Under the pieces are notes generated by a model. The model had not been told where the DNA came from. It searched no databases and worked only from the letters and a program-made list of their open reading frames with translations. Both the position numbers and the translations under genes were made by a program. DNA of 64,000 nucleotides from Candidatus Omnitrophota bacterium (GTDB lineage Bacteria > Omnitrophota > Gorgyraeia > JAFGHF01): positions 135,229 to 199,228 of the forward strand of contig CP070837.1 of assembly GCA_020341815.1 (NCBI GenBank), written 5' to 3'. Shown piece by piece: positions 7,397-60,907 of the stretch (the first letter of the stretch is position 1; each line of letters begins with the position of its first letter).

Positions 7397-7885
7397 ATGA
7401 AGCTTAAAGGCAAAGTTCATAAGTTCGGCAGCAATATCAATACGGATGAGATAATTCCGGCCAAGTTCCTGAATATCAGTGAGGCTAAAGAGCTGGGTGC
7501 GCATTGCATGGAAGGGATAGCGCCGGGTTTTGCAAAAAAAGTGGAAAAGGGCGATATAATAGTAGCCGGGAAAAACTTTGGCTGCGGCTCATCCCGTGAG
7601 CATGCGCCCGTTTCCATCAAGGCCTGCGGGATTAGTTGCGTGTTAGCCGAAAGTTTCGCCCGTATTTTTTATCGCAATGCTATTAATATCGGCCTGCCAA
7701 TTTTAGAGTGCAGCCAGGTAAAGAGGATTTCTAAAAATAGTTTAGTGGAAATAGATCTGGATAACGGGGAAATCAGGGATTTGACCAAAAATAAAGTCTA
7801 TTCTGGGCAGGGTTTTCCTAAATTCATGCAGGAGTTGATCAAGGCAGGAGGACTCTTGCCTTACATAAGAAAGGGACATCGCTAA
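7397..7885 (+). CDS. leuD: 3-isopropylmalate dehydratase small subunit
   Basis: [25 protein letters not shown] is a typical LeuD N-terminus. The ATG lies 1 nt after the lipoprotein stop. Confidence 0.85.
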
Positions 7886-30194: not shown

Positions 30195-30212
30195 AGGGAG
30201 GTGAAAAGACTA

Positions 30213-30482
30213 ATGGCACAAAAAGTAATGAAATGCGGCGTCACTAGGAAGAAGGGCTATCTTTACTACCTTGATAAGAACGGTAACGTCGCCGAGGCAA
30301 AGATGGCCCGGGGCAGAAAAAGAGGTGGTGGCTCCAAGGTGGTCGTCAAATGCGGCATCAAGAGGAAAAAGGGTTATCTCTACTTCATTGACAAAAAAGG
30401 CGATGTCTCTATGGCCAAAATGGTTCGCGGCGGCCGCAAGAGAAAGAAGAAAAAGGCAACAAGAAGAAGGAGAAGAAGGTAG
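30213..30482 (+). CDS. Small extremely basic protein with internal tandem duplication and poly-Arg tail
   Basis: Two ~35-aa repeats: KCG(V/I)xRKKGYLY(Y/F)(L/I)DKxGxVxxAKMxRGxRKR. C-terminus is KKKKATRRRRRR. A GGGAGGTG RBS lies 9 nt before the ATG at 30213. Confidence 0.6.
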   Translation: MAQKVMKCGVTRKKGYLYYLDKNGNVAEAKMARGRKRGGGSKVVVKCGIKRKKGYLYFIDKKGDVSMAKMVRGGRKRKKKKATRRRRRR

Positions 30483-30503
30483 TTTTATTTAAGTTTTGAG
30501 CTT

Positions 30504-30564
30504 AAGGCCCCTGTAATTGCTGCTTGGCCCGTTCAAAATTTTGAATGGGCTTTACAGGGGCCTT
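30504..30564. promoter_or_regulatory. Nested palindrome overlapping the uvrA promoter
   Basis: Outer arms are AAGGCCCCTGTAA / TTACAGGGGCCTT. Inner palindrome is GCCCGTTCAAAATTTTGAATGGGC. TTTACA(30551)-17-TATAAT(30574) overlaps the right arm. Confidence 0.55.
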
Positions 30565-30588
30565 ACCCTTTGCTATAATCGGACTAAA

Positions 30589-33463
30589 GATGCCTAAGGA
30601 ATATATTATTATAAGAGGTGCCAAAGAGCACAACCTCAAAAGTATCAACCTCAAAATTCCCCGCGACAAATTAGTGGTCGTGACCGGCTTAAGCGGTTCG
30701 GGAAAATCTTCTCTTGCCTTTGATACTATTTATGCCGAAGGACAGAGAAGGTATGTAGAGAGCCTCTCCAGTTACGCCCGCCAGTTCTTAGAGCAGTTAC
30801 AGAAACCTGATGTAGAGCATATCGAAGGTATTTCTCCGGCAATCTCTATTGAACAGAGGCCCGCAGGCAGTAATCCGCGCTCTACGGTAGGCACTCAGAC
30901 CGAAATCTACGATTACCTGCGTCTTTTATTTGCCCGTGTAGGCAGGGCCCATTGCTATAAATGCGGCCGGGAGATTTCTCGCCAGAGCCCACAACATATC
31001 GTAGAGCAGATTCTCAAATTACCTGCCGAAAGCAATATTATGCTTCTGGCCCCTTGCATCCGGGGGCGTAAAGGTGAATTTCGTCAGGTCTTTAGCGACA
31101 TTCGCAAACAGGGTTTTGTGCGCGTACGGGTGGATAATAAAGTCTACGACATAGACGAAATAAACCCCGCCCTTCTTAAAAACCCTACGTCAAAGAATAT
31201 GTATAGATTGAGCGACAAAAAGAAGGGCGGGGTGAAATTAGATAAAAAAAGAGCTCATAGTATCGAAGCGGTAGTGGATAGGCTCAAGGTTAACCCTCTT
31301 GAGAAATCAAGGCTTACGGATTCGGTGGAGACTGCCTTAAAAGCAGGAGGAGGAATAGTAATTGTTTCCAGACTCATCAAAAAAGGGCGTTGGCAGGATA
31401 TGCTCTTCAGTGAAGATTATGCCTGCGTTGATTGCGGCATAAGTTTTGCTGAGCTGCAACCACGCGATTTTTCCTTTAACAGCCCTTATGGAGCATGCAG
31501 CGCCTGTAATGGGCTGGGCACCAAGATTGAGGTGGATCCGGATCTTTTAGTGCCGGATAAAAACCGCTCGCTTTCCGAAGGCGCACTTGAGCCTTGGAGA
31601 AAAGGAGGCAGGGGTTATATCCTATATTATCGAGGGCTGATAAGGGAATTGGCCAGACAAATGGGCTTCAGTATAGATATCCCTTTTAAAAAACTAAATA
31701 AAAATGTGCGCAAGGCGATTTTTTACGGATGCGACGAATATGTCTGGGGCAAGCCGTTTGAAGGGGTGATTCCCCACCTGGAGCGTCTTTTCCGGGAGAC
31801 CGAGAGCGAGTATTTAAAATCCGAAATCAATAACTTTATGAGTATCTTGCCTTGTCCTGTCTGCGACGGGGCGCGCCTGAAAAAAGAAAGTCTGGCCGTA
31901 ACCATCAATAATAAAAGCATATGGGATGTGGTCAGAATGTCTATTAGCCGGCTCAAAGGTTTTTTCGAAGAGTTGGATCTTACTCCCGCAGAAAGCATAA
32001 TTGCCCATCAGGCCCTCAAGGGCATTAAGGAAAGATGCAGATTTATGCTCAATGTGGGGCTGGACTATCTGACTTTAGAGAGGGCCGCCGGTACTCTTTC
32101 CGGAGGCGAGGCTCAACGCATTCGCCTGGCCACACAGGTGGGGGCGGGGCTAGTGGGTGTGGTTTATATACTGGATGAGCCCAGTATCGGCCTGCACCAG
32201 AGGGATAACAGGAAGCTTCTGAACACGCTTTGCGCTCTTCGGGACCTGGGAAACAGCTTGATTGTCGTAGAGCATGATGAGGCCACTATAAGGTCTGCAG
32301 ATTATATTATCGATCTGGGGCCCGGGGCAGGCCGTCATGGCGGAAAGGTTGTAGCCTGCGGAAGCTTTAAGAGTTTATTAAGGTCGCGCGAGTCTTTAAC
32401 CGCCAGATATCTGCGCGGGCAGCTTAAAATAGAAGTGCCCAAGGCAAGGAGAAAGATAAATGCCAAGGCCCTGCAGGTCTGGGGTGCACGCGAACACAAT
32501 CTAAAAAATATAAATGTGCGTATCCCCCTGGGGTTATTTGTCTGCGTCAGCGGCGTATCCGGCTCAGGCAAAAGCACGCTTGTGGATGAGATTCTTTACC
32601 GGGGCCTGGCAAAGAAGCTCTACCGCCATAAAGAAAGGCCCGGGGCACATGACAAAATTACCGGAGCGGAATTTATAGATAAGGTGATTGTGGTGGATCA
32701 GTCTCCCATTGGCCGCACGCCCCGCTCTAATCCGGCTACCTATTCAGGGGTTTTTACTCATATCCGTGAGCTTTTCTCTAGACTTCCGGAGTCGCGTATG
32801 GCAGGATATAAGCCGGGCAGGTTCAGCTTTAATCTTAAAGGCGGAAGGTGCGAAGACTGCCAGGGCGAGGGGATAAAAAGGATAGAGATGCACTTTCTTC
32901 CCGATGTTTATGTTAGCTGTGAGACTTGTCGGGGCTTAAGGTTCAACGAGCAGACCTTGGGAATAAAATATAAGGGAAAATCTATTGCCGATGTTTTGAA
33001 TATGACAACGGAAGATGCCTTGAACTTATTTAAGAATATCCCCAGAATCAGAGAGAAGCTGGCAATTCTTAATGATGTGGGCCTGGGGTATATTCAGCTG
33101 GGTCAGTCGGCAACTACCCTCTCAGGAGGCGAGGCCCAGAGACTGAAGCTTTCTGCGGAATTAGGCAAGAGGGCTACCGGCAAGACGCTCTATATACTGG
33201 ATGAGCCCACAACGGGATTGCATTTTGCGGATATAGATAAGTTACTCGCTGTTTTACAGAGATTGGTTGATATGGGTAATACAGTGCTTGTGATCGAGCA
33301 CAATTTGGAGGTGCTTAAAAGCGCCGATTATATTATTGATTTGGGGCCTGAAGCAGGAGAGTCCGGAGGCCGCATTGTTGGCTGCGGTACACCGGAAGAA
33401 CTGGCCAGGATTGAAAGTTCCTTCACCGGTAAATATTTGAAAAAGATTTTGATGAGATGCTAA
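30589..33463 (+). CDS. uvrA: Excinuclease ABC subunit A, carrying an in-frame repeat-element insertion
   Basis: Two ABC ATPase modules ([20 protein letters not shown]), zinc fingers and signature motifs. Start taken at the ATG at 30589 after the promoter. Confidence 0.9.
31160..31237 (+). repeat. IR-flanked repeat element, copy 4, subfamily B, inserted in-frame inside uvrA
   Basis: TAAACCCCGCCCTTCT ... GAAGGGCGGGGTGAA, translated as [27 protein letters not shown] within UvrA. Confidence 0.75.
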
Positions 33464-35946
33464 GGATTATTTATATCTGGATTATTTTATTTTTTCTCAG
33501 TTGTTTGAGCGGGACTGCTTCTTGCGAAGAGCCGCAGGATTTATATTTAGCCAAACGGGCCTTCGATGACGGCTTTTATGAAATTGCCCTTAAGCACTTC
33601 CAGAAATATCAACAGGTTAATCCCGAGGCACAGATTTTTATCGGCCGTTGTTATCTAAATTTAAATAAGTTTCCGGAGGCCCTGGAGGTACTGGGTGAGA
33701 TTTTGAAGCAGGATTCCCGCGAAAATAAATTTTTAGACTCAGCTACCTATTGGACGGCACAAACATATTTTAAAGCCAAGGATTATGAAAATGCCCTTAG
33801 CTTTTTTGAGAAGGTGATCGGCTCTTACCCAAATTCTTCCCTCCTGCCGCAGAGTTATTATTATCGAGCTTGCTGCTATTATCAACGCCAGCAATACAAT
33901 CAGGCATTTAATTTTTATAAAGAATTCAATAAGGCTTTTAATAGGCACCAATTGAAGGAAAAAAGCTCTTTCCGTATTGCCCAGTGCCTCTACAATATTA
34001 AAAATTATAAGCAGGCTCATAAAGAATTCAAATCATTTCTTAAGAGTTTTTCTAAGTCGGGAGAGAGAAATAGCGCCTTCTATTATTTAGGCGAGATAGA
34101 ATATACCAGAGGCAATTTCAATAAAGCCCTGGGCTATTATACCGAGGCCGCTGAGCTTCTGCCCAAGGTGAAAATTGCTGCTCTGGCTAAATATGCCAGG
34201 GGCTGGTCCTACCTTAAGCTCGAAGAATATAAAAAGGCTCTGAATGAGTTTAACAGATTGCAAAGGGCTTCAAGTTTCGGCCCGGCCTTAGAAGATTCGA
34301 TAATTTTTGCTAAAGGACGTTGCAATGCTTATTTAAGGAGATACCCGGAGAGCATTCAATTATATGAAAAAATTATCAATGAGTTTAGTCACTCTTCCTG
34401 GTTTGCCGATGTCTATTTTTGGAAAGGCCAGGCACTTTATGAAATGGGAGAATACAAACAGGCTTGCCAGACCTATGAAGAGGCCTTGGAGAGGTTTTCT
34501 AAAAGCCCTTCTCTTAGAAGAATTGATAAGGATTCAGTCGTCTATGAGCGCGAGGGTTTTTCCGATAATCTAATCGATAATCTTCGTTATAATCTGGGCT
34601 GGGCCTATGCCAGAATGAAAGACTATACGCAAGCCATAGATCAGTTCAGGCAGGTCTTCGAACGTTCCGGCGAGCGCTTTCTTAAAAGCGGAGCGCTTTG
34701 CAGAATAGGGGATATCTATCTTGAGCAGGCAGATACCAAAGAGGCAATTAAGCATTACGATTCCGTATTGAAAGACTTTTCCGCCTCCTATTATGCGGAT
34801 TATGCTCAATATCAATTGGGTGTTGCCTTCTGCGAAGAAAAGAGATTTGATAGCGCGATATTGGCTTTTAATGCTTTGATAGCCAATTTTCCCCAGAGCA
34901 ATCTTCAGGATAAGGCGCATTATCAAATAGCCGCAATATATTTTCGCCAGGGCAGGTTTTCTCAAGTCCAAGAGCAGATGGATAATTTAATTAAGAAGTT
35001 TCCGCGCAGCCAGCTTAAAAGCGAGGCTACTTTTCTTAAAGGCTTCGCCTATTACAATAACAAGAAATATAAAGAGGCAGAAGAGGCTTTTAGCGATGTC
35101 CTGCGTCTATCAGAAGATACAAAGCTAAAGTTGAAAGCGCAATATCAGATAGGATTTTGTTTTTACCAGAGGGGCGAAGAGGAAAGAGCTATAAAAGAGT
35201 TTAAAAAGTTTTTAAGTATTTATCCTGATTCGGAGTTGAGTTGCGACTTATTATTTTGGATGGGAAAGTATTATTTTCGCAAAAAGGATTATAGTAAAGC
35301 GCAAAAATATTTCGCCGACTTAAAAGAAGAGTTTCCTCGCAAGGAATTAGTTGATGATGCCTTGTTCTGGCAGGCCAAGGCACTTTCTGAGCAGAATAAG
35401 TCGAAGGAGGCGCTTAAATTATTGAAAGATCTGGAGAATGGTTATCCAAATAGCGATTTGGCGGCTGATGCCTTGTTGCTTCAGGGAGATATCTTGAAAG
35501 CTGAAAACAGGATGGATGAAGCCAGGAATTTACATAAAATAGTCTGCAGTAGATTTAGGGAAACAAACTTTGAGCGTCTCGCCCATAAAAAAATAGCTGA
35601 GATTATGCTTGAAGAGGGGCAGTTTCTTGAGGCCATTGAGGAATATGGCCGGGCCTTGGGTTCCGACAGCGATGACTTCAATGCCCAGATACAATTTGCC
35701 ATAGCCGACTGTTTTCAAGGACAGAAAGACCTCATCCGGGCCCTGGACGAATACTTAAAGGTCTGCTATCTTTACCCCGATGCCTTTGAGTGGGCAAAGA
35801 AGGCCCAGTTTGAATGCGCGCAGATTTTTGAAGAGCAGGCCGATTGGCAAAAGGCCAAAGATATCTATGAAAAATTGGCTAAAGGTAAGGGTGAAGAGGC
35901 CGAGTTTGCACGCAAGAGATTAGAACAGTTGGGGGGAGAAAAGTAA
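33457..35946 (+). CDS. Secreted tetratricopeptide (TPR) repeat protein
   Basis: Signal peptide and more than 15 TPR-like repeats. Confidence 0.7.
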   Translation: MLRIIYIWIILFFLSCLSGTASCEEPQDLYLAKRAFDDGFYEIALKHFQKYQQVNPEAQIFIGRCYLNLNKFPEALEVLGEILKQDSRENKFLDSATYWTAQTYFKAKDYENALSFFEKVIGSYPNSSLLPQSYYYRACCYYQRQQYNQAFNFYKEFNKAFNRHQLKEKSSFRIAQCLYNIKNYKQAHKEFKSFLKSFSKSGERNSAFYYLGEIEYTRGNFNKALGYYTEAAELLPKVKIAALAKYARGWSYLKLEEYKKALNEFNRLQRASSFGPALEDSIIFAKGRCNAYLRRYPESIQLYEKIINEFSHSSWFADVYFWKGQALYEMGEYKQACQTYEEALERFSKSPSLRRIDKDSVVYEREGFSDNLIDNLRYNLGWAYARMKDYTQAIDQFRQVFERSGERFLKSGALCRIGDIYLEQADTKEAIKHYDSVLKDFSASYYADYAQYQLGVAFCEEKRFDSAILAFNALIANFPQSNLQDKAHYQIAAIYFRQGRFSQVQEQMDNLIKKFPRSQLKSEATFLKGFAYYNNKKYKEAEEAFSDVLRLSEDTKLKLKAQYQIGFCFYQRGEEERAIKEFKKFLSIYPDSELSCDLLFWMGKYYFRKKDYSKAQKYFADLKEEFPRKELVDDALFWQAKALSEQNKSKEALKLLKDLENGYPNSDLAADALLLQGDILKAENRMDEARNLHKIVCSRFRETNFERLAHKKIAEIMLEEGQFLEAIEEYGRALGSDSDDFNAQIQFAIADCFQGQKDLIRALDEYLKVCYLYPDAFEWAKKAQFECAQIFEEQADWQKAKDIYEKLAKGKGEEAEFARKRLEQLGGEK

Positions 35947-35948
35947 AC

Positions 35949-37529
35949 TTGAATAAGCTGCATAAGGTAAGCTTAATCTTTTTATTTTTTGCACTTTTTA
36001 TTCAGCAGAATTGCTTTGGCGAGAAAGTCTGGCAGCGACTGGATTCGGAAGTCAAAGACTCAGAGATTATCTCAATTTCTGTCTTTTCAGGGAATGATAG
36101 TTTTATTTGTGCTGCAAGCGAGAACTGCGTTTATCTTTCAAAAGACGCAGGAGATTCCTGGAAAGAGGTTTTCTCTCTCAAAGTTGCTACGGGTGAGATA
36201 AACTTTGTCGCTTTTGATTGTCTGGATGAGGAGACTTTGTATTTAGCTACAACCGAGGGACTCTTTATCAGGAAAGACCAGCGCTGGCAGAAGGTATTCT
36301 CAAAACCAAGCGAGGAGGCAAATAATGTGCTTCGGATTGCTCCTGCCTGTTTTGATTCCCGCAAGCTTTATATTGGTACAAAAGAAGGCTTGTACTTTTC
36401 TCAGGATAAGGCACAGACTTGGAAGAGGCTTAAAGGAGGCCTGCCTCGCTCGGAAATCAGGTCCATTGCGGCTCATACAGATAATTCCTTTGTTTTATAT
36501 TTAGCCAATACATACGGCCTTTTTAAATCGACAGATGTCGGCCGCTCCTGGCGAAGGATTTACGTTACCAGCTATAAAGTTAGCGATGAAGAAGAGGAAG
36601 AGAGTGACGAGGAAGAGGATTCGCAAAATCTGATTAACTGTATTGCCATTGACAGGACCGATCCCAGAAGAGTGTTTATTGCTACAGGTAAAGGTGTCTT
36701 GGTTTCTCCGGATGCGGGAGAAAGCTGGAATAGATTACCCAGCCGAGGTTTGGTTTGCGATTATGTCAATTTTATAGTTATCTCAAGTAAAAAAGGCACG
36801 TTATATGCGGCTACAAATAACGGTGTATTCAAATTTTCTCCTCAATCGGATAGCTGGCAGGAAATCTACCAGGGTATGACCGGGCGCAATGTTTATTCTC
36901 TTGCCTTGGGTATGGATGAGGAGCATCTGTTTGCCGCTACGGATAAGGGGATTTTTAACACAGTTAGGGCCAAAGATATCCAAAAACAAAAAGTAAAGAA
37001 AGAAAAAGATAAACCGGCTCTTGAACAAGTGCTTAAGGAGCTCACCCTGAAGGAGCCGACTATCCGGGAGGTTCAGGAGGCGGCGATAAGATATGCCGAA
37101 GTGGTTCATCCTAAGGTATTTAAAGCTCTACGCAGGGATTCCAGGCTCAGGGGGTTTTTGCCAACTATAAGTTTAGATTATGATAAGACTGTATATGGAA
37201 GTTCCAACAATAAAGTTGGATTTGTCGGTCCTCGCGACTGGGGGCTTAGCTTTTCCTGGGATGTGGGGGAGCTTCTTTTTAGCGAGCAGACAAGATTGGT
37301 GGACAGTAACATCCGCCTGGCGGTGCAGCTGCGTGATGATATCCTTGATGAAGTAACGCGGCTCTATTATGAAAGGCGAAAGTTGCAGACAGAACTTATC
37401 GTCAGGCCACCCAAAAAGACCGAAGATAAACTGGCCCAAACCCTGAGACTACAAGAGCTAACCGCAAATATTGATGCCTTAACCGGGGGCTACTTCTCCC
37501 GACAGCTGAAAATGGCTAATTGCAAATAA
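35949..37529 (+). CDS. Secreted BNR/Asp-box repeat beta-propeller protein (Ycf48-like)
   Basis: Signal peptide, repeated SxDxGxSW motifs (SKDAGDSW, STDVGRSW, SPDAGESW) and an acidic DEEEEESDEEEDS stretch. Confidence 0.65.
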   Translation: MNKLHKVSLIFLFFALFIQQNCFGEKVWQRLDSEVKDSEIISISVFSGNDSFICAASENCVYLSKDAGDSWKEVFSLKVATGEINFVAFDCLDEETLYLATTEGLFIRKDQRWQKVFSKPSEEANNVLRIAPACFDSRKLYIGTKEGLYFSQDKAQTWKRLKGGLPRSEIRSIAAHTDNSFVLYLANTYGLFKSTDVGRSWRRIYVTSYKVSDEEEEESDEEEDSQNLINCIAIDRTDPRRVFIATGKGVLVSPDAGESWNRLPSRGLVCDYVNFIVISSKKGTLYAATNNGVFKFSPQSDSWQEIYQGMTGRNVYSLALGMDEEHLFAATDKGIFNTVRAKDIQKQKVKKEKDKPALEQVLKELTLKEPTIREVQEAAIRYAEVVHPKVFKALRRDSRLRGFLPTISLDYDKTVYGSSNNKVGFVGPRDWGLSFSWDVGELLFSEQTRLVDSNIRLAVQLRDDILDEVTRLYYERRKLQTELIVRPPKKTEDKLAQTLRLQELTANIDALTGGYFSRQLKMANCK

Positions 37530-37612
37530 ATGTCGGTTATAACCATTTTCTTATCAAGCGGTTACGAATACAAGTTTATTCTTTTGAAATTGTTGAATAA
37601 TTTGAAATAAAT

Positions 37613-37642
37613 GTTGTATTTATTTTACAACTATGGTATACT
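37613..37642 (+). promoter_or_regulatory. Palindromic operator GTTGTATTTATTTTACAAC overlapping the TTGTAT-17-TATACT promoter of the XRE gene
   Basis: Directly visible 19-bp palindrome with 6-bp arms. -35 at 37614-37619 and -10 at 37637-37642. Confidence 0.5.
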
Positions 37643-37712
37643 TTAAGTAGGCGTAGTAGATATATTACAACACTGCGGTCATTAGAACTGTTAAACAGAA
37701 AGGTAGGTGAGT

Positions 37713-38081
37713 ATGATGGTTACCTTTGGAGAATTCTTTAAACAGAAAAGAATTTCTTTAGGTAAGACATTAAGGCAGTTCTGCTTAGAGAATCAACTGG
37801 ACCCTGGCAATATCAGCAAGATAGAAAGAGGGAAATTACCTCCGCCTGCTTCAGAGGAAAAATTGAAAGAGTATGCTAAATATTTAAATATCCAATTTGG
37901 CAGTGAAGAATGGCAAACATTTAAAGATTTAGCTTCTCTTAGCGCCGGTAAGATACCCGATGATTTAAAGAATGAGCAGGAATTGCTTGCAAGACTTCCT
38001 GTATTCTTTAGGACATTAAGAGATAAAAAATTCTCGGAAGAAGATTTGAAGGAGCTGATTAAAAAAATCAGAGAATCATGA
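37713..38081 (+). CDS. XRE-family helix-turn-helix transcriptional regulator
   Basis: HTH_XRE signature (LRQFCLENQLDPGNISKIERGK). Confidence 0.75.
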   Translation: MMVTFGEFFKQKRISLGKTLRQFCLENQLDPGNISKIERGKLPPPASEEKLKEYAKYLNIQFGSEEWQTFKDLASLSAGKIPDDLKNEQELLARLPVFFRTLRDKKFSEEDLKELIKKIRES

Positions 38082-38084
38082 TAG

Positions 38085-38717
38085 ATGGAACTCCAGCCAA
38101 TATTTAAAACTAAAGAGCAAATAAATTCTGAAGCAGAAAGTTTTTTAAAAAAGTACCATCCATCCAAAGCTATCCCTATCCCAATAGAACAAATAATAGA
38201 TATACAATTACAAATCGATATTATTTCAATTCCTGGCTTAAAAGATGCCTCTGAAACATTAGACCATGATATAGATGCATTTATTTCTTCAGATTTCAGA
38301 AGTATTTCCGTAGATAAGTATATTTATGATAAAGTTGCTACCCGATATAGATTTACTTTAGCGCATGAAATTGGGCATATGATACTTCACGAATATTTAT
38401 ATGCACAATTTAAATTTAATAAAATGGATGAATTTATTACAACCATTAACGAGATGCCATTGAAGGAACGGGGAATGGTTGAATGGCAAGCCGATGAATT
38501 TGCCGGTTTAATTCTTGTGCCTCGAGAATTTCTGGAAGAGAAATTTAAAAAAGCGCTAACAAGAGCTGAAGAAGTACTCAATACATCTTTTAAGGATAGT
38601 CCGGATTTTGTAATAGATGTGGCAATTGCCTATCTTGCACAAGACTTTGCTGTAAGTGCAGATGTAGCAAGAATACGGCTCGAAAGAGATGGTTTAAAGG
38701 AAAAACAGCTTCAATAA
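38085..38717 (+). CDS. ImmA/IrrE-family zinc metallopeptidase (COG2856)
   Basis: HEIGH zinc motif (LAHEIGHMILHEY) and the downstream WQADEFAGLILVP motif. Starts 3 nt after the XRE gene. Confidence 0.8.
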   Translation: MELQPIFKTKEQINSEAESFLKKYHPSKAIPIPIEQIIDIQLQIDIISIPGLKDASETLDHDIDAFISSDFRSISVDKYIYDKVATRYRFTLAHEIGHMILHEYLYAQFKFNKMDEFITTINEMPLKERGMVEWQADEFAGLILVPREFLEEKFKKALTRAEEVLNTSFKDSPDFVIDVAIAYLAQDFAVSADVARIRLERDGLKEKQLQ

Positions 38718-38886
38718 ATAAACCATACCGACGTTGATATTGCTGTCAAAACAGGCGTTTTGAAGTGGAAAGAGTCATGAACTTTTCTCTTGACTAACCC
38801 TATATTTTATGGTATGTTAAGCCAAATTTGCCTCTCTTTAATTAGCCCGTCAAGGTTAGTCCTTTGATGACAGACTCCATATTATT

Positions 38887-41526
38887 ATGAATAAAAAAGT
38901 ATTGCTTATTGACGGTAACTCCTTTTGTTATCGTGCCTTTTACGCCATCAGAAGCCTTTCCACATCAAAAGGTCAGCCCACCAATGCGGTTTACGGTTTT
39001 GTGGCTATGCTGAATAAGCTTATCACGCAGCAAAAGCCCGATTATCTGGCAGTAGCCTTTGACCTTAAAGGGCCTACTTTTCGCCACAAGAAATTTGCCG
39101 ATTACAAAGTTCAGCGCAAGCCTATGCCGGATGATTTAAGCGTTCAATTGCCTGTGATTAAAAGGGTTCTTCATGCCTATCGTATTCCCATATTTGAGAA
39201 AAAGGGCTATGAGGCCGATGATGTTATCGCTACTTTAGCCAAGAGATTAAGCCAGACGAAAGCAGAGATATTGATAGTTACGGGAGATAAAGATATATTG
39301 CAGTTGGTTAGCAGTAATATCAAGGTAATCAATCCGCACAAAGACGATTTAGTTTTAGATGAGGGTTGGGTGAAGAAGAGGTTTGGTGTTGCGCCCGATA
39401 AAATTACCGAGATTATGGCTTTGGCAGGAGATGCCAGCGATAATATTCCCGGCGTTCCCGGCATAGGTGAGGCCACTGCCGTAGAACTGATTAAGCAGTT
39501 CGGCACACTTGATGAGGTATTAGCCAATACGGATAAGATAAAAAATAAGGCCAGGGCCGAAAAGATAAAGGAGTTTGCAAGCCTTGCCCAGATGAGCAGG
39601 GAGCTTACCCGACTGGACAGCGACATTACTCACCTGGCCGAAACCGAGCCAGGCCAGCTGCTCGGACAATTGAAAATAGTCGAGGCGGATAAAAAGGAGT
39701 TGTTTGAGATCTTTAAGGAGCTTGAGTTTAAATCCTTAATGGAGAAGGCCGCAGAAGAATTTAAGGATGAGACAGGTTATAAAGTTATTTCCGATACTAA
39801 AGAAATAGAGGAATATTTTAAAAAGCTTGCGAAAAAAGATACCATAACCTTTTATCCCGCAGGCGGGCGGCCTGACCCTGTGACGGCCAAAATATCAGGC
39901 ATTGCTTTTACTTTCGAGAGAACGAAGCCGGCGTTTTTTTCTTTCGCAGATATTTCCAAAGACGCCCTGAAGCTTATTCTGGAGAATAAAAATATAAAGA
40001 AAATCGGGCACAATTTAAAATACGCAAAAGTGCTTTTCTCCAATTACGGAATTACCTTGGAAGGTATGAGTTTCGATACGATGATTGCCGCATATCTCTT
40101 AGACCCGGCAAAACTGAAATACGGCCTGGGTGATTTAGCTTTAGAATATCTTAATTGCAAATTGGGAGATTTGCCTGATGCGGGCCTGTCTCGCCCTCAG
40201 GCGGACACAGAAAACGAGGCGGCAGAACTTGCCTGCCAGAATGTAACTATAATTTTTAGATTGAGCAAAACCTTAAAAGAAAAGCTGAAAGAAAAGAGTC
40301 TTTTGAGTTTATTTGAGAATATCGAGATGCCCCTTGCGGGAGTCTTGGCGGATATGGAAAGAGAAGGGGTTACGCTGGATAAGAAATTATTGCTTGAGCT
40401 CTCCGGAGATTTTGAGAAGAAACTGAATAGTTTAACCAGAGAGATTTATGAGATGGCCGGCGGCAGCTTCAATATCAATTCACCCAAGCAACTGAGTTCT
40501 GTTTTGTTTGATAAGCTGAAACTGCCCAGAATAAAGCGGACAAAGACAGGAAGCTCAACAGACACAGAAGTCCTGCGTAAGCTCACCAGCGTTCATCCTC
40601 TGGCCCAGCGGCTTCTGGAGTTTAGAGAGATATCCAAGCTAAAGTCCACTTATGTAGAGGGGATGATGAAGCTGTTAAAGTCTTCCTCGTCAGGAAAAAT
40701 TCACACCTCTTTCAATCAAACAGGCACCGCAACCGGCAGGCTTTCTTCAAGCCAGCCCAATTTACAAAATATCCCTATACGCACCGCTTTAGGGAGAAAG
40801 ATTCGCCGGGTTTTTGTTCCTTCGGCAGGCGACAGTTTTCTTTTATCGGCAGACTATTCGCAAATAGAATTAAGGATACTTGCCCATCTTTCGGAAGATA
40901 AAGGCTTGATTTCGGCATTTAAAGAAGACTTGGATATCCATGCCTATACGGCATCTTTAATTTTTAATGTAAGCGTTGATAAAGTATCCCGCCAGATGAG
41001 GAGCGCTGCCAAGACGGTTAATTTCGGAATTATTTACGGAATGGGCGCTTACGCCCTATCCAAGGATTTGGGCATAAAACAGGCCCAGGCAGAGGAGTTC
41101 ATCGAGGCCTATTTCCAGAGGTATCCCGGGGTGAGGAATTATGTCAAGCGCCAGACAGAAAAGGCCGCAAAAGACGGCTTTGTGACCACGCTTATGAAGC
41201 GCCGGCGCTACATCCCACAAATCCAGAGCCCTGATGAAAGCATGCGCCGCTTTGCCCAGCGCATGGCCATAAACGCGCCCGTGCAGGGCTCTGCCAGCGA
41301 TTTAATCAAGGCAGCAATGGTAAATATTCACAATGCCCTGATAAAACAAGGGCATCGGGCGAAGATGATTATCCAGGTTCACGATGAGCTGGTATTTTCC
41401 CTGCCCGAGGAGGAATTGGAGGCGCTCTCTTTGCTTGTTAAGGACAAAATGGAAAATGTAATAAAACTGAAAGTTCCGATTAAGGTTTCAATCAAAAGCG
41501 GAAAGAACTGGCTGGAGGTAAAATGA
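38887..41526 (+). CDS. polA: DNA polymerase I
   Basis: 5'-3' exonuclease N-terminus and family A polymerase motifs A, B and C (DYSQIELR, RRSAKTVNFGIIYG, QVHDEL). Confidence 0.9.
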   Translation: MNKKVLLIDGNSFCYRAFYAIRSLSTSKGQPTNAVYGFVAMLNKLITQQKPDYLAVAFDLKGPTFRHKKFADYKVQRKPMPDDLSVQLPVIKRVLHAYRIPIFEKKGYEADDVIATLAKRLSQTKAEILIVTGDKDILQLVSSNIKVINPHKDDLVLDEGWVKKRFGVAPDKITEIMALAGDASDNIPGVPGIGEATAVELIKQFGTLDEVLANTDKIKNKARAEKIKEFASLAQMSRELTRLDSDITHLAETEPGQLLGQLKIVEADKKELFEIFKELEFKSLMEKAAEEFKDETGYKVISDTKEIEEYFKKLAKKDTITFYPAGGRPDPVTAKISGIAFTFERTKPAFFSFADISKDALKLILENKNIKKIGHNLKYAKVLFSNYGITLEGMSFDTMIAAYLLDPAKLKYGLGDLALEYLNCKLGDLPDAGLSRPQADTENEAAELACQNVTIIFRLSKTLKEKLKEKSLLSLFENIEMPLAGVLADMEREGVTLDKKLLLELSGDFEKKLNSLTREIYEMAGGSFNINSPKQLSSVLFDKLKLPRIKRTKTGSSTDTEVLRKLTSVHPLAQRLLEFREISKLKSTYVEGMMKLLKSSSSGKIHTSFNQTGTATGRLSSSQPNLQNIPIRTALGRKIRRVFVPSAGDSFLLSADYSQIELRILAHLSEDKGLISAFKEDLDIHAYTASLIFNVSVDKVSRQMRSAAKTVNFGIIYGMGAYALSKDLGIKQAQAEEFIEAYFQRYPGVRNYVKRQTEKAAKDGFVTTLMKRRRYIPQIQSPDESMRRFAQRMAINAPVQGSASDLIKAAMVNIHNALIKQGHRAKMIIQVHDELVFSLPEEELEALSLLVKDKMENVIKLKVPIKVSIKSGKNWLEVK

Positions 41527-59894: not shown

Positions 59895-60907
59895 TGAAAA
59901 AAATATTAATTTTATTTGCCGTCTTTGCGTCTTGTTCAAGTTGTAGTGAGTGCGCTCTGATTAAACAAACTAAGCCCGCCTTAGGCACTATTGTAGAGAT
60001 TACAGTCGCAGACAAAGATAAATCTCACGAGCTTCTTTACGGCGCAATAGAAAAGGCTTTTAGTGAGATAGAAAGAATAGAAGGGCTTTTTAGTAGATTT
60101 AGGCCCGAGAGCGATATTAGCCGAATTAACAATTATTCTTCTCTTAAGCCCATTAAGGTAAGCCCTGAGACAATAGAGGTGCTTGAGGATTCAATCAAAT
60201 TCAGTCGGCTTACCGATGGGGCCTTTGATATTACGATTTGCCCCTTAATGGAGGATTGGGATTTCAAAAGGAGAAAGATTAAAAGCTTGCCGCAGGATGC
60301 ACAATTGAAGGAGTCTTTAGATAAAGTAGGCTGGCAGAATATAAATATTATTAAGGAAAAGAGGGTTGTATCTTTTGGGCAACCGCAGATGAGTCTGGAT
60401 TTAGGGGGTATTGCCAAAGGTTATGCCGTGGATAAGGCCGTAGAGGTGCTTAAGCAGGAGGGGATTGATAACGCCTTAGTTAATGCCGGGGGAGATATCT
60501 ATGCCTTAGGCAAATGTAGTAAAGTTAATAAATGGCATATTGGTCTGCAGCATCCGCGCAAGCGCGATGCGATTTTGACGGTATTAGAGTTAGAGAACAA
60601 GGCCGTGGCTACATCCGGTGATTATCAAAAATATATTGAGATTAATAAAACACGCTATAGCCATATTCTTAATCCTGAATCAGGCTGGCCTGCCTCAAAG
60701 AACGCGATAAGCGTAACGATATTGGCCGATAATTGCACCAGCGCTGATGCTTTGGCTACCTCTGTATTTGCTTTGGGCCCAGAGAAGGGAATGAGTTTAG
60801 TTAATCGTTTAGAGAATACTGAGGCTATTATGGCTGGTTTTGAAGAGGATAAGTTGTGCTTTTGGCTTTCGGAAGGACTAAGAGAAAGAGTGAGGCTTAA
60901 TCAGTGA
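59891..60907 (+). CDS. apbE: FAD:protein FMN transferase (ApbE family lipoprotein)
   Basis: Lipoprotein signal (FASCSSCSE) and ApbE-family pattern. Confidence 0.75.
   Translation: MMKKILILFAVFASCSSCSECALIKQTKPALGTIVEITVADKDKSHELLYGAIEKAFSEIERIEGLFSRFRPESDISRINNYSSLKPIKVSPETIEVLEDSIKFSRLTDGAFDITICPLMEDWDFKRRKIKSLPQDAQLKESLDKVGWQNINIIKEKRVVSFGQPQMSLDLGGIAKGYAVDKAVEVLKQEGIDNALVNAGGDIYALGKCSKVNKWHIGLQHPRKRDAILTVLELENKAVATSGDYQKYIEINKTRYSHILNPESGWPASKNAISVTILADNCTSADALATSVFALGPEKGMSLVNRLENTEAIMAGFEEDKLCFWLSEGLRERVRLNQ

Follow-up and report, generated by a model that had tools for sequence, protein, structure and literature searches.

Related systems

The gene pair considered here, an XRE-family repressor gene followed by a gene for an M78 (ImmA/IrrE-family) zinc metallopeptidase, lies at positions 37530–38717 of a 64,000-nucleotide (nt) stretch of contig CP070837.1 from a Candidatus Omnitrophota bacterium; this whole stretch is referred to below as the window. 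The closest described systems match a helix–turn–helix (HTH) protein with a peptidase of the same family. CapP comprises a peptidase domain, an HTH linker and a GAF domain, with single-stranded DNA (ssDNA) bound between peptidase and GAF, and one-third of CapP proteins carry a cysteine-switch loop (Lau et al. 2022, bioRxiv 10.1101/2022.04.27.489752; Calloji et al. 2026, bioRxiv 10.64898/2026.05.16.725639). The cleavage site of its partner CapH, F82|R83, lies within the helix that opens the C-terminal domain, and CapH and CapP are transcribed divergently from the defence operon (bioRxiv 10.1101/2022.04.27.489752; 10.64898/2026.05.16.725639). IrrE has the same three-domain organisation as CapP (peptidase, HTH linker and GAF), its peptidase and GAF domains forming an ssDNA-binding groove. 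In Deinococcus, irrE and ddrO are dispersed core genes. In RosmerTA systems, an HTH domain and an ImmA-type protease are fused in a single antitoxin, RmrA, which is found with variable, separate RmrT toxins (PMC10440598).

A preliminary description of this DNA had proposed that the pair constitutes a DdrO/IrrE-like damage switch for nearby repair genes. We arrive at a different reading: with a probability of roughly 0.7, the pair is an ImmR/ImmA-type (equally, a CapH/CapP-type) switch carried on a small, horizontally exchanged cassette, present here as an orphan whose closeness to repair genes is coincidental. Comparative analysis establishes a predicted two-gene operon with a double operator, its accessory status, and the variable defence and mobile neighbours of its relatives; the logic in which the protease cleaves the repressor probably holds as well.

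A double operator around the promoter

Two + strand open reading frames (ORFs), the first for the XRE-HTH protein and the second for the M78 peptidase, fill 37530–38717 together with the following control elements:

37613..37631, no strand: operator O1, GTTGTATTTATTTTACAAC, a perfect 6-N7-6 palindrome of the form GTTGTA-N7-TACAAC
37634..37642, + strand: putative extended -10 element TGgTATACT, read from the sequence and kept in the homologous loci L003, L007 and L009
37653..37671, no strand: operator O2, GTAGTAGATATATTACAAC, with one mismatch; not in the preliminary description
37713..38081, + strand: XRE-family repressor, 122 amino acids (aa), N-terminal HTH domain, Pfam HTH_19/HTH_3
38085..38717, + strand: M78 zinc metallopeptidase (ImmA/IrrE-family, COG2856), 210 aa, HEIGH motif, Pfam Peptidase_M78

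Two earlier statements about this arrangement are borne out by the coordinates: the repressor and peptidase genes are indeed exactly 3 nt apart (the TAG at 38082–38084), and the 19-bp palindrome said to overlap their promoter is present as a perfect match at O1. For the repressor gene, the ORF finder gives a GTG start at 37707; the ATG at 37713 is preceded by a ribosome-binding site, AGGTAGGTG. A possible -35 element, TTGTAT (37614–19), again read from the sequence, lies inside the left arm of O1 and 17 nt before the extended -10, and O1 overlaps both this putative -35 and the spacer. The centre of O2 is 40 bp beyond that of O1, on the far side of the -10, so that the two operators bracket the extended -10 element. 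We infer the latter, TGgTATACT not having been listed by a simple promoter scan.

Searching the 64 kb for GTTGTA-N7-TACAAC with up to two mismatches returned three sites, where 1.0 would be expected. The pair's promoter accounts for two; the third, at 60365, has two mismatches, and the total is within chance expectation. Neither uvrA, polA nor any other gene start of the window has a further site nearby. Conservation across loci is a stronger argument for the operator than this count. In L003, L007 and L009, which are on unrelated contigs and encode peptidases 63, 63 and 50% identical to that of the window, the layout O1, TATG-n-TATAyT, O2 recurs upstream of the repressor gene at near-identical distances, with O1 and O2 spaced by 38–40 bp and TATG[GAT]TATA[CT]T kept between them. 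Across 28 loci of the subfamily, the motif (again with up to two mismatches) occurs 30 times in the 190-bp promoter intervals and 14 times in the other 356 kb, corresponding to densities of 5.6 and 0.04 sites/kb and an enrichment of ~140-fold, and at least one promoter site is present in 20 of the 28, representing several phyla. In distant members of the subfamily, the operator spacer itself holds TATAAT.

The conserved operator pair thus provides strong comparative evidence for autorepression, which the preliminary description had suggested from the palindrome: an operator and promoter layout with two palindromes around the -10, kept across phyla, would give the pair the autoregulation that is a feature of ImmR/ImmA modules. 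The high conservation of the repressor (see below) fits the conserved operator. In the locus L025, two extra operator-like sites with one mismatch each (7586–7636) are found directly 3' of the peptidase gene, and this is the only locus in which the motif recurs outside the XRE promoter.

The peptidase and the repressor

The peptidase matches Pfam Peptidase_M78 (PF06114) at 1e-14, with the HEIGH motif at residues 94–98, and H94, E95, H98, H102 and E133 are invariant in a 40-sequence alignment of homologues; on this comparison the predicted active site is intact. Its AF2 model (predicted local distance difference test score, pLDDT, of 94) has a peptidase core and then helices only, being all-helical after residue 147. 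In a Foldseek search of the PDB, the model was closest to PprI/IrrE (E 3.6e-5, TM ~0.55), with further matches to an M. tuberculosis XRE-M78 regulator and to CapP (1.1e-3). The best PADLOC model is capP (2.2e-14), whose profile is matched at positions 4–126 of 242 only; the RmrA models (2e-9) match the peptidase core only. Neither the structural model nor the capP match reveals a GAF domain, the 210-aa protein being too short for one, and there is no cysteine in its sequence. In architecture it resembles the short ImmA. The earlier assignment of the pair to the ImmA/IrrE family holds for the M78 fold, the best matches being PprI/IrrE and CapP, but does not extend to the GAF domain of the IrrE/CapP ssDNA groove, which is lacking.

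The repressor is the more conserved partner, family members being 58–88% identical compared with 40–66% for the peptidases. It matches Pfam HTH_19 (2.5e-6) and HTH_3 (23.4 bits against a cut-off of 23), as well as the PADLOC capH model (2.4e-4). Residues 1–77 are modelled as a five-helix, 434-Cro-like HTH domain with pLDDT >90, and the C-terminal 40 residues are poorly modelled (pLDDT 57–69). This C-terminal segment carries an invariant LPxFFRTLR motif (P96, F99, R100) and, by analogy with F82|R83 of CapH, F99|R100 is a candidate cleavage site. A sequence-profile search of the PDB with the repressor gave nothing significant (best E 0.056), DdrO included; by fold, its model yielded only generic Cro/434 HTH matches (E ~0.01–0.1), amongst them ClgR, SinR, the N-terminal domains of DdrO, CapH and ImmR, and C-proteins.

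A recently exchanged cassette in a variable slot

The pair stands out from its surroundings in composition, with a GC content of 30–36% against 42–47% in the flanks, and in its relationship to a sister strain from a different sample (L001). A block spanning the promoter and both genes is identical in the two strains, whilst the flanks are only 93–95% identical, a divergence of ~6% on both sides. Identity of 100% against a background divergence of ~6% is therefore not due to common descent but to recent exchange or a sweep and, to judge from its composition and this identity, the pair is a recently exchanged, AT-rich accessory cassette. The features that delimit it are these:

37500..38692, + strand: block 100% identical to the sister strain, 0 mismatches over 1193 bp
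38718..38778, + strand: cassette 3' tail, with no convincing intrinsic terminator
38779..38807, + strand: 29-bp stretch, GAACTTTTCTCTTGACTAACCCTATATTT, which includes the polA -35 and is present as a single copy in the window
38790..38818, + strand: polA's own promoter, TTGACT-17-TATGTT with an upstream TG, forming the right-hand edge of the accessory slot

Further evidence comes from related Omnitrophota (BNR proteins 55–59% identical), which keep the gene order nadA-aspDH-small ORF-uvrA-TPR-BNR|polA-glgA-coaE-rho. Three such lineages (L091, L093 and L094) share the flanking synteny but lack the pair. Since the synteny is kept without the pair, uvrA and polA were already close to one another in the ancestor, with a variable slot at the BNR|polA junction. 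Nothing lies at this junction in L093; it encodes a 642-aa unknown protein in L091/L092 and a 74-aa PspC protein in L094, and holds XRE plus M78 in the window and XRE plus M78 plus SIR2 in the sister strain; this region (37530–38886) is an accessory-gene hotspot. In L094, the uvrA-TPR segment upstream of the BNR gene is replaced by a toxin–antitoxin run (HicAB, PIN, RES-Xre).

Between the two segments of conserved synteny there is space for no more than a cassette of ~1.2 kb. In agreement with the earlier remark that no phage or integrative-element genes lie nearby, we found no integrase, phage gene or xis near the pair in the window and no tRNA gene anywhere in its 64 kb. Around the cassette, a search for terminal inverted or direct repeats gave nothing beyond 7-nt AT-rich matches, and no att-like repeats. 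A 17-nt direct repeat is present in two copies that are 88% identical, one (TAATTGCAAATAAATGT, 37517–37533) at the BNR stop codon and the other (TAATTTGAAATAAATGT, 37598–37614) directly before O1; it may be junction microhomology from insertion of the cassette, or a chance occurrence in AT-rich DNA.

In the sister strain, the 29-bp stretch is duplicated as a direct repeat around a 1.14-kb insert with a SIR2-like gene; either the window strain has lost this gene by recombination between the repeats or the sister strain has gained it. The gene, which directly follows the identical peptidase gene, encodes a 332-aa protein that matches Pfam SIR2_2 (33 bits, cut-off 24.5) and PADLOC SIR2 models, with values as low as 1.6e-9. 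In its sequence we recognise the GSGFS, NYD and LHGS motifs typical of SIR2 NADases, which make it a putative NADase; a sequence search of the PDB found no relative. The leader of the SIR2-like gene (10711–10770 in L001) can form hairpins that exclude one another, GTTACTAT...ATAGTAAC and a perfect 16-bp inverted repeat, CACCTACGCGGTGGAA-N13-TTCCACCGCGTAGGTG, and looks like an attenuator or protein-binding site. An Rfam search of the sister-strain cassette, this leader included, gave no match.

The polA promoter is kept next to polA in relatives that lack the pair, whatever lies upstream. Comparison of the window (38790–38880) with L091 (10590–10690), L093 (8650–8780) and L094 (8925–8960) shows it to be highly conserved as TTGACTAAC-yCTATATTTT-rTGGTATGTTA. 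Only in the window, L091 and L093 is the start of polA preceded by a conserved leader of the form TTAGCCC-r-TCAA...TAGTCCTTT-r-ATGA, which may be a regulatory element of the 5' untranslated region.

Homologous pairs and their neighbours

Pairs of the same subfamily are found in Genome Taxonomy Database (GTDB) genomes of Planctomycetota, Omnitrophota, Acidobacteriota, Thermodesulfovibrionales, Riflebacteria, Desulfobacterota and Patescibacteria, and in nearly all homologous loci an ORF of ~120–130 aa lies directly upstream of the peptidase gene. What follows the pair is far less constant. The downstream proteins of 28 homologous loci showed no similarity to one another, which we take as variability and not as an argument against linkage. 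Co-directional downstream genes recognised by PADLOC encode DUF4238-Pers (1e-16), an FRG-domain PDC-S15 protein (8e-42), DUF2971/PDC-S31 (4e-34) and Fic/SoFic (2e-18), and a Bro-N protein with an HsdR fragment is found as another cargo; several downstream genes overlap the peptidase gene or start no more than 40 nt from it. Other neighbours include Eco57I-type (type IIG) and type I restriction–modification systems, Schlafen/AlbA_2, DUF3800, RHH-Fic, AbiEii and a methyltransferase. Most cargo genes of relatives follow the pair in the same orientation, L011 possibly being divergent from a Schlafen/AlbA_2 gene. In two lineages (L009 and L175–178, 50–54% identical), an excisionase and a tyrosine integrase lie beside the pair.

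Neighbouring genes in the window

The genes on either side of the pair are as follows:

30545/30590..33463, + strand: uvrA, upstream neighbour
33457..35946, + strand: TPR protein, between uvrA and the BNR gene
35949..37529, + strand: BNR/sortilin-like protein, directly upstream of the pair
38887..41526, + strand: polA, next gene after the peptidase gene

Downstream, polA is followed by glgA, coaE and rho. The N-termini of the TPR and BNR proteins, read by eye, are hydrophobic and resemble signal sequences, and the placing of the pair in the preliminary description, with polA downstream and uvrA upstream beyond two genes for secreted proteins, agrees with these ORFs. All long gene-like ORFs of the window (1–64000) are on the + strand, and cumulative GC skew climbs steadily in the part of the window examined; the strong gene-strand bias is consistent with a single replichore.

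The nested palindrome that had been reported at the uvrA promoter is real, with outer arms at 30503–30516 and 30552–30565 and an inner palindrome at 30527–30550, and its sequence is unrelated to the XRE operator. The outer hairpin, TAAGGCCCCTGTAA / TTACAGGGGCCTTA (30503–30565), is kept with a short loop in L001, L091 and L093; the loop in the window adds the 24-bp palindrome GCCCGTTCAAAATTTTGAATGGGC (30527–30550), which the sister strain does not have. The hairpin overlaps the -35 region of a TGcTATAAT promoter, and the true uvrA start is probably the ATG at 30590, not 30545. Upstream of uvrA, a 93-aa ORF (30201–30482) encodes an internally duplicated, Lys/Arg-rich protein in which KCG[VI]..KKGYLY..D..G.V..AKM.RG is present in two copies. 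No Pfam family is recorded for this protein, and its position between aspDH and uvrA is kept in relatives (84–92 aa).

Proposed mechanism and alternatives

We propose that a dimer of the XRE protein would bind the two GTTGTA-N7-TACAAC operators around the extended -10 element and so repress its own gene together with that of the co-transcribed peptidase. On some stress or infection cue, the peptidase would cut the C-terminal segment of the repressor, F99-R100 being the best candidate site, and the operon would be derepressed along with any gene lying downstream. Such cargo would vary between relatives, from the SIR2-like gene of the sister strain to DUF4238, FRG/PDC-S15, DUF2971/PDC-S31 and Fic/SoFic, with integrase/excisionase in some. 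In the window genome the cargo slot would be empty, the cassette sitting between the BNR-repeat gene and the polA promoter. A much less probable idea is that the pair serves as a 'landing pad', defence genes being taken up and exchanged on its 3' side; the 29-bp duplication that flanks the SIR2-like gene of the sister strain hints at this.

A number of points weigh against this proposal. Binding, cleavage and induction are inferred from homology and conservation, and the operator search covered 64 kb of a 1.55-Mb genome. As the peptidase has neither a GAF domain nor a cysteine, the activating signal of CapP or IrrE is no guide to its own. With no cargo in the window, the switch may be functionless or may act alone. 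Around one-third of the pairs surveyed are likewise alone between housekeeping genes, with no obvious co-directional accessory gene. In the sister strain, the SIR2-like gene begins 203 nt after the peptidase gene, behind a copy of the polA -35 and a strong hairpin, and may be outside the control of the XRE promoter.

Of the other explanations, the one that survives best, although improbable, is that the pair is a decayed ImmR/ImmA immunity module of an integrative element or prophage, with no function beyond self-repression. The relatives with an adjacent excisionase and tyrosine integrase suggest as much, as do distant full-length relatives (27–36% identical) on IMG/VR viral contigs and matches to PHROG families that include a phage metalloprotease and repressors. 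Both ORFs are intact, however, with all invariant catalytic and family residues present, and the 100% identity of the block in two diverged strains speaks for recent spread rather than old decay. Nor does the locus look like the remnant of an element: no att-like terminal repeats or tRNA were found, the extra gene of the sister strain is SIR2-like and not an element gene, and a search of 50,697 sequenced phages gave one weak, partial match to the peptidase and none to the XRE protein.

It is less likely still that the two genes form a self-contained module, toxin–antitoxin-like or a minimal defence system, in which the M78 protein is the effector and the XRE protein its antidote or sensor, with no need of cargo. 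The many pairs that stand alone between housekeeping genes would fit such a module. They include L003–5 and L014, the latter upstream of 141- and 132-aa ORFs whose translations we take to be ribosomal proteins L13 and S9. The ImmA domain is also a hub of RosmerTA-like toxin–antitoxin and defence networks (PMC10440598), and the RmrA models of PADLOC match the peptidase at 2e-9. In RosmerTA, however, the ImmA-domain protein is the antitoxin and the toxin is separate, and there is no toxin gene here; the tight link to variable downstream genes in many loci is better explained by a regulator. We know of no evidence for toxicity of stand-alone M78 peptidases.

Two further explanations involve the repair genes. 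Read-through from the XRE promoter towards polA is possible, since we found no convincing intrinsic terminator ahead of polA, although polA has no need of such read-through. That the orphan switch has been co-opted in this way, derepression reading through into polA to give a stress- or phage-inducible boost of Pol I atop the polA promoter, would be a weaker, locally evolved form of the repair-switch idea, and we regard it as very unlikely. Least probable of all is the original proposal of a chromosomal DdrO/IrrE-like damage switch, in which the XRE protein would keep uvrA, polA and similar repair genes under its control: it could draw on the position of the pair between these two genes, on the PprI/IrrE matches of the peptidase model (E 3.6e-5, TM ~0.55) and on the lack of a detected terminator before polA, but within the 64 kb scanned for a motif shared with repair genes the operator pair occurs at the pair's own promoter only and not near uvrA or polA, the palindrome at uvrA does not resemble the operator in sequence and relatives that lack the pair keep its outer hairpin, polA is served by a conserved promoter of its own, the pair is missing from relatives that share the synteny, the cassette is compositionally foreign and recently exchanged, the peptidase is without a GAF domain and the repressor has no significant sequence match to DdrO.

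Implications

For annotation, the lesson is that an XRE/M78 pair near repair genes is no evidence for a DdrO/IrrE-type damage regulon; here, it was the synteny comparison that revealed an accessory insertion in a variable slot. The subfamily itself is well defined and widespread, combining a ~120-aa repressor, a highly conserved GTTGTA-N7-TACAAC operator and a ~205-aa GAF-less peptidase, and spans Omnitrophota, Planctomycetota, Nitrospirota and other phyla, where it lies ahead of diverse single-gene defence candidates. It could guide the search for new defence genes in uncultured phyla, and is a compact system in which to study signal sensing by M78 peptidases that have no GAF domain. Specialists in ImmA and CapP will find nothing unexpected here.

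Comparison with known systems

With DdrO/IrrE (PprI) of Deinococcus, the pair shares the M78 fold and the pairing of an XRE repressor with a protease. It differs in having no GAF domain and no regulon-type operator at repair genes in the 64 kb, and in that the pair is not conserved in its lineage, its two genes being adjacent and mobile. The likeness to RosmerTA is in the M78 domain with an HTH partner and the highly variable neighbouring effector genes; here, however, HTH and peptidase are separate proteins, there is no toxin beside the window copy, and RmrA scores below capP.

CapH/CapP is nearer. Both proteins find their best PADLOC matches in this system, the relatives likewise combine an HTH repressor and M78 peptidase with diverse defence-type genes, and the invariant Phe-Arg in the C-terminal segment of the repressor resembles F82|R83 of CapH. 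In contrast to CapP, the window peptidase has no GAF domain and no cysteine and aligns to the capP profile over its first half only. All window genes are on the + strand and the cargo of relatives is co-directional and downstream, not divergent. No defence gene adjoins the pair in the window, such genes being represented by the SIR2-like gene of the sister strain and by candidates in homologous loci.

Compared with ImmR/ImmA of the Bacillus subtilis element ICEBs1 and its homologues in phi105-type phages, the window copy lacks integrase, xis, att repeats and tRNA, whereas the relatives L009 and L175–178 have integrase and excisionase genes beside the pair; there is no detectable close sequence similarity, the HTH domain alone matching the N-terminal domain of ImmR at the level of a generic fold, and the sister-strain cargo is SIR2-like. 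In organisation the two agree. ImmR/ImmA likewise has a short (~170–210 aa), GAF-less M78 protein encoded after the XRE gene in one autoregulated operon, and our pair has the features of this type, an M78 peptidase with HExxH and a downstream Glu ligand and an XRE gene directly upstream in the operon. In both, co-directional genes follow (int in ICEBs1, variable cargo in this subfamily), and some relatives of the pair adjoin integrase and xis. The pair belongs to an uncharacterised subfamily within the known ImmR/ImmA–CapH/CapP–DdrO/IrrE kind.

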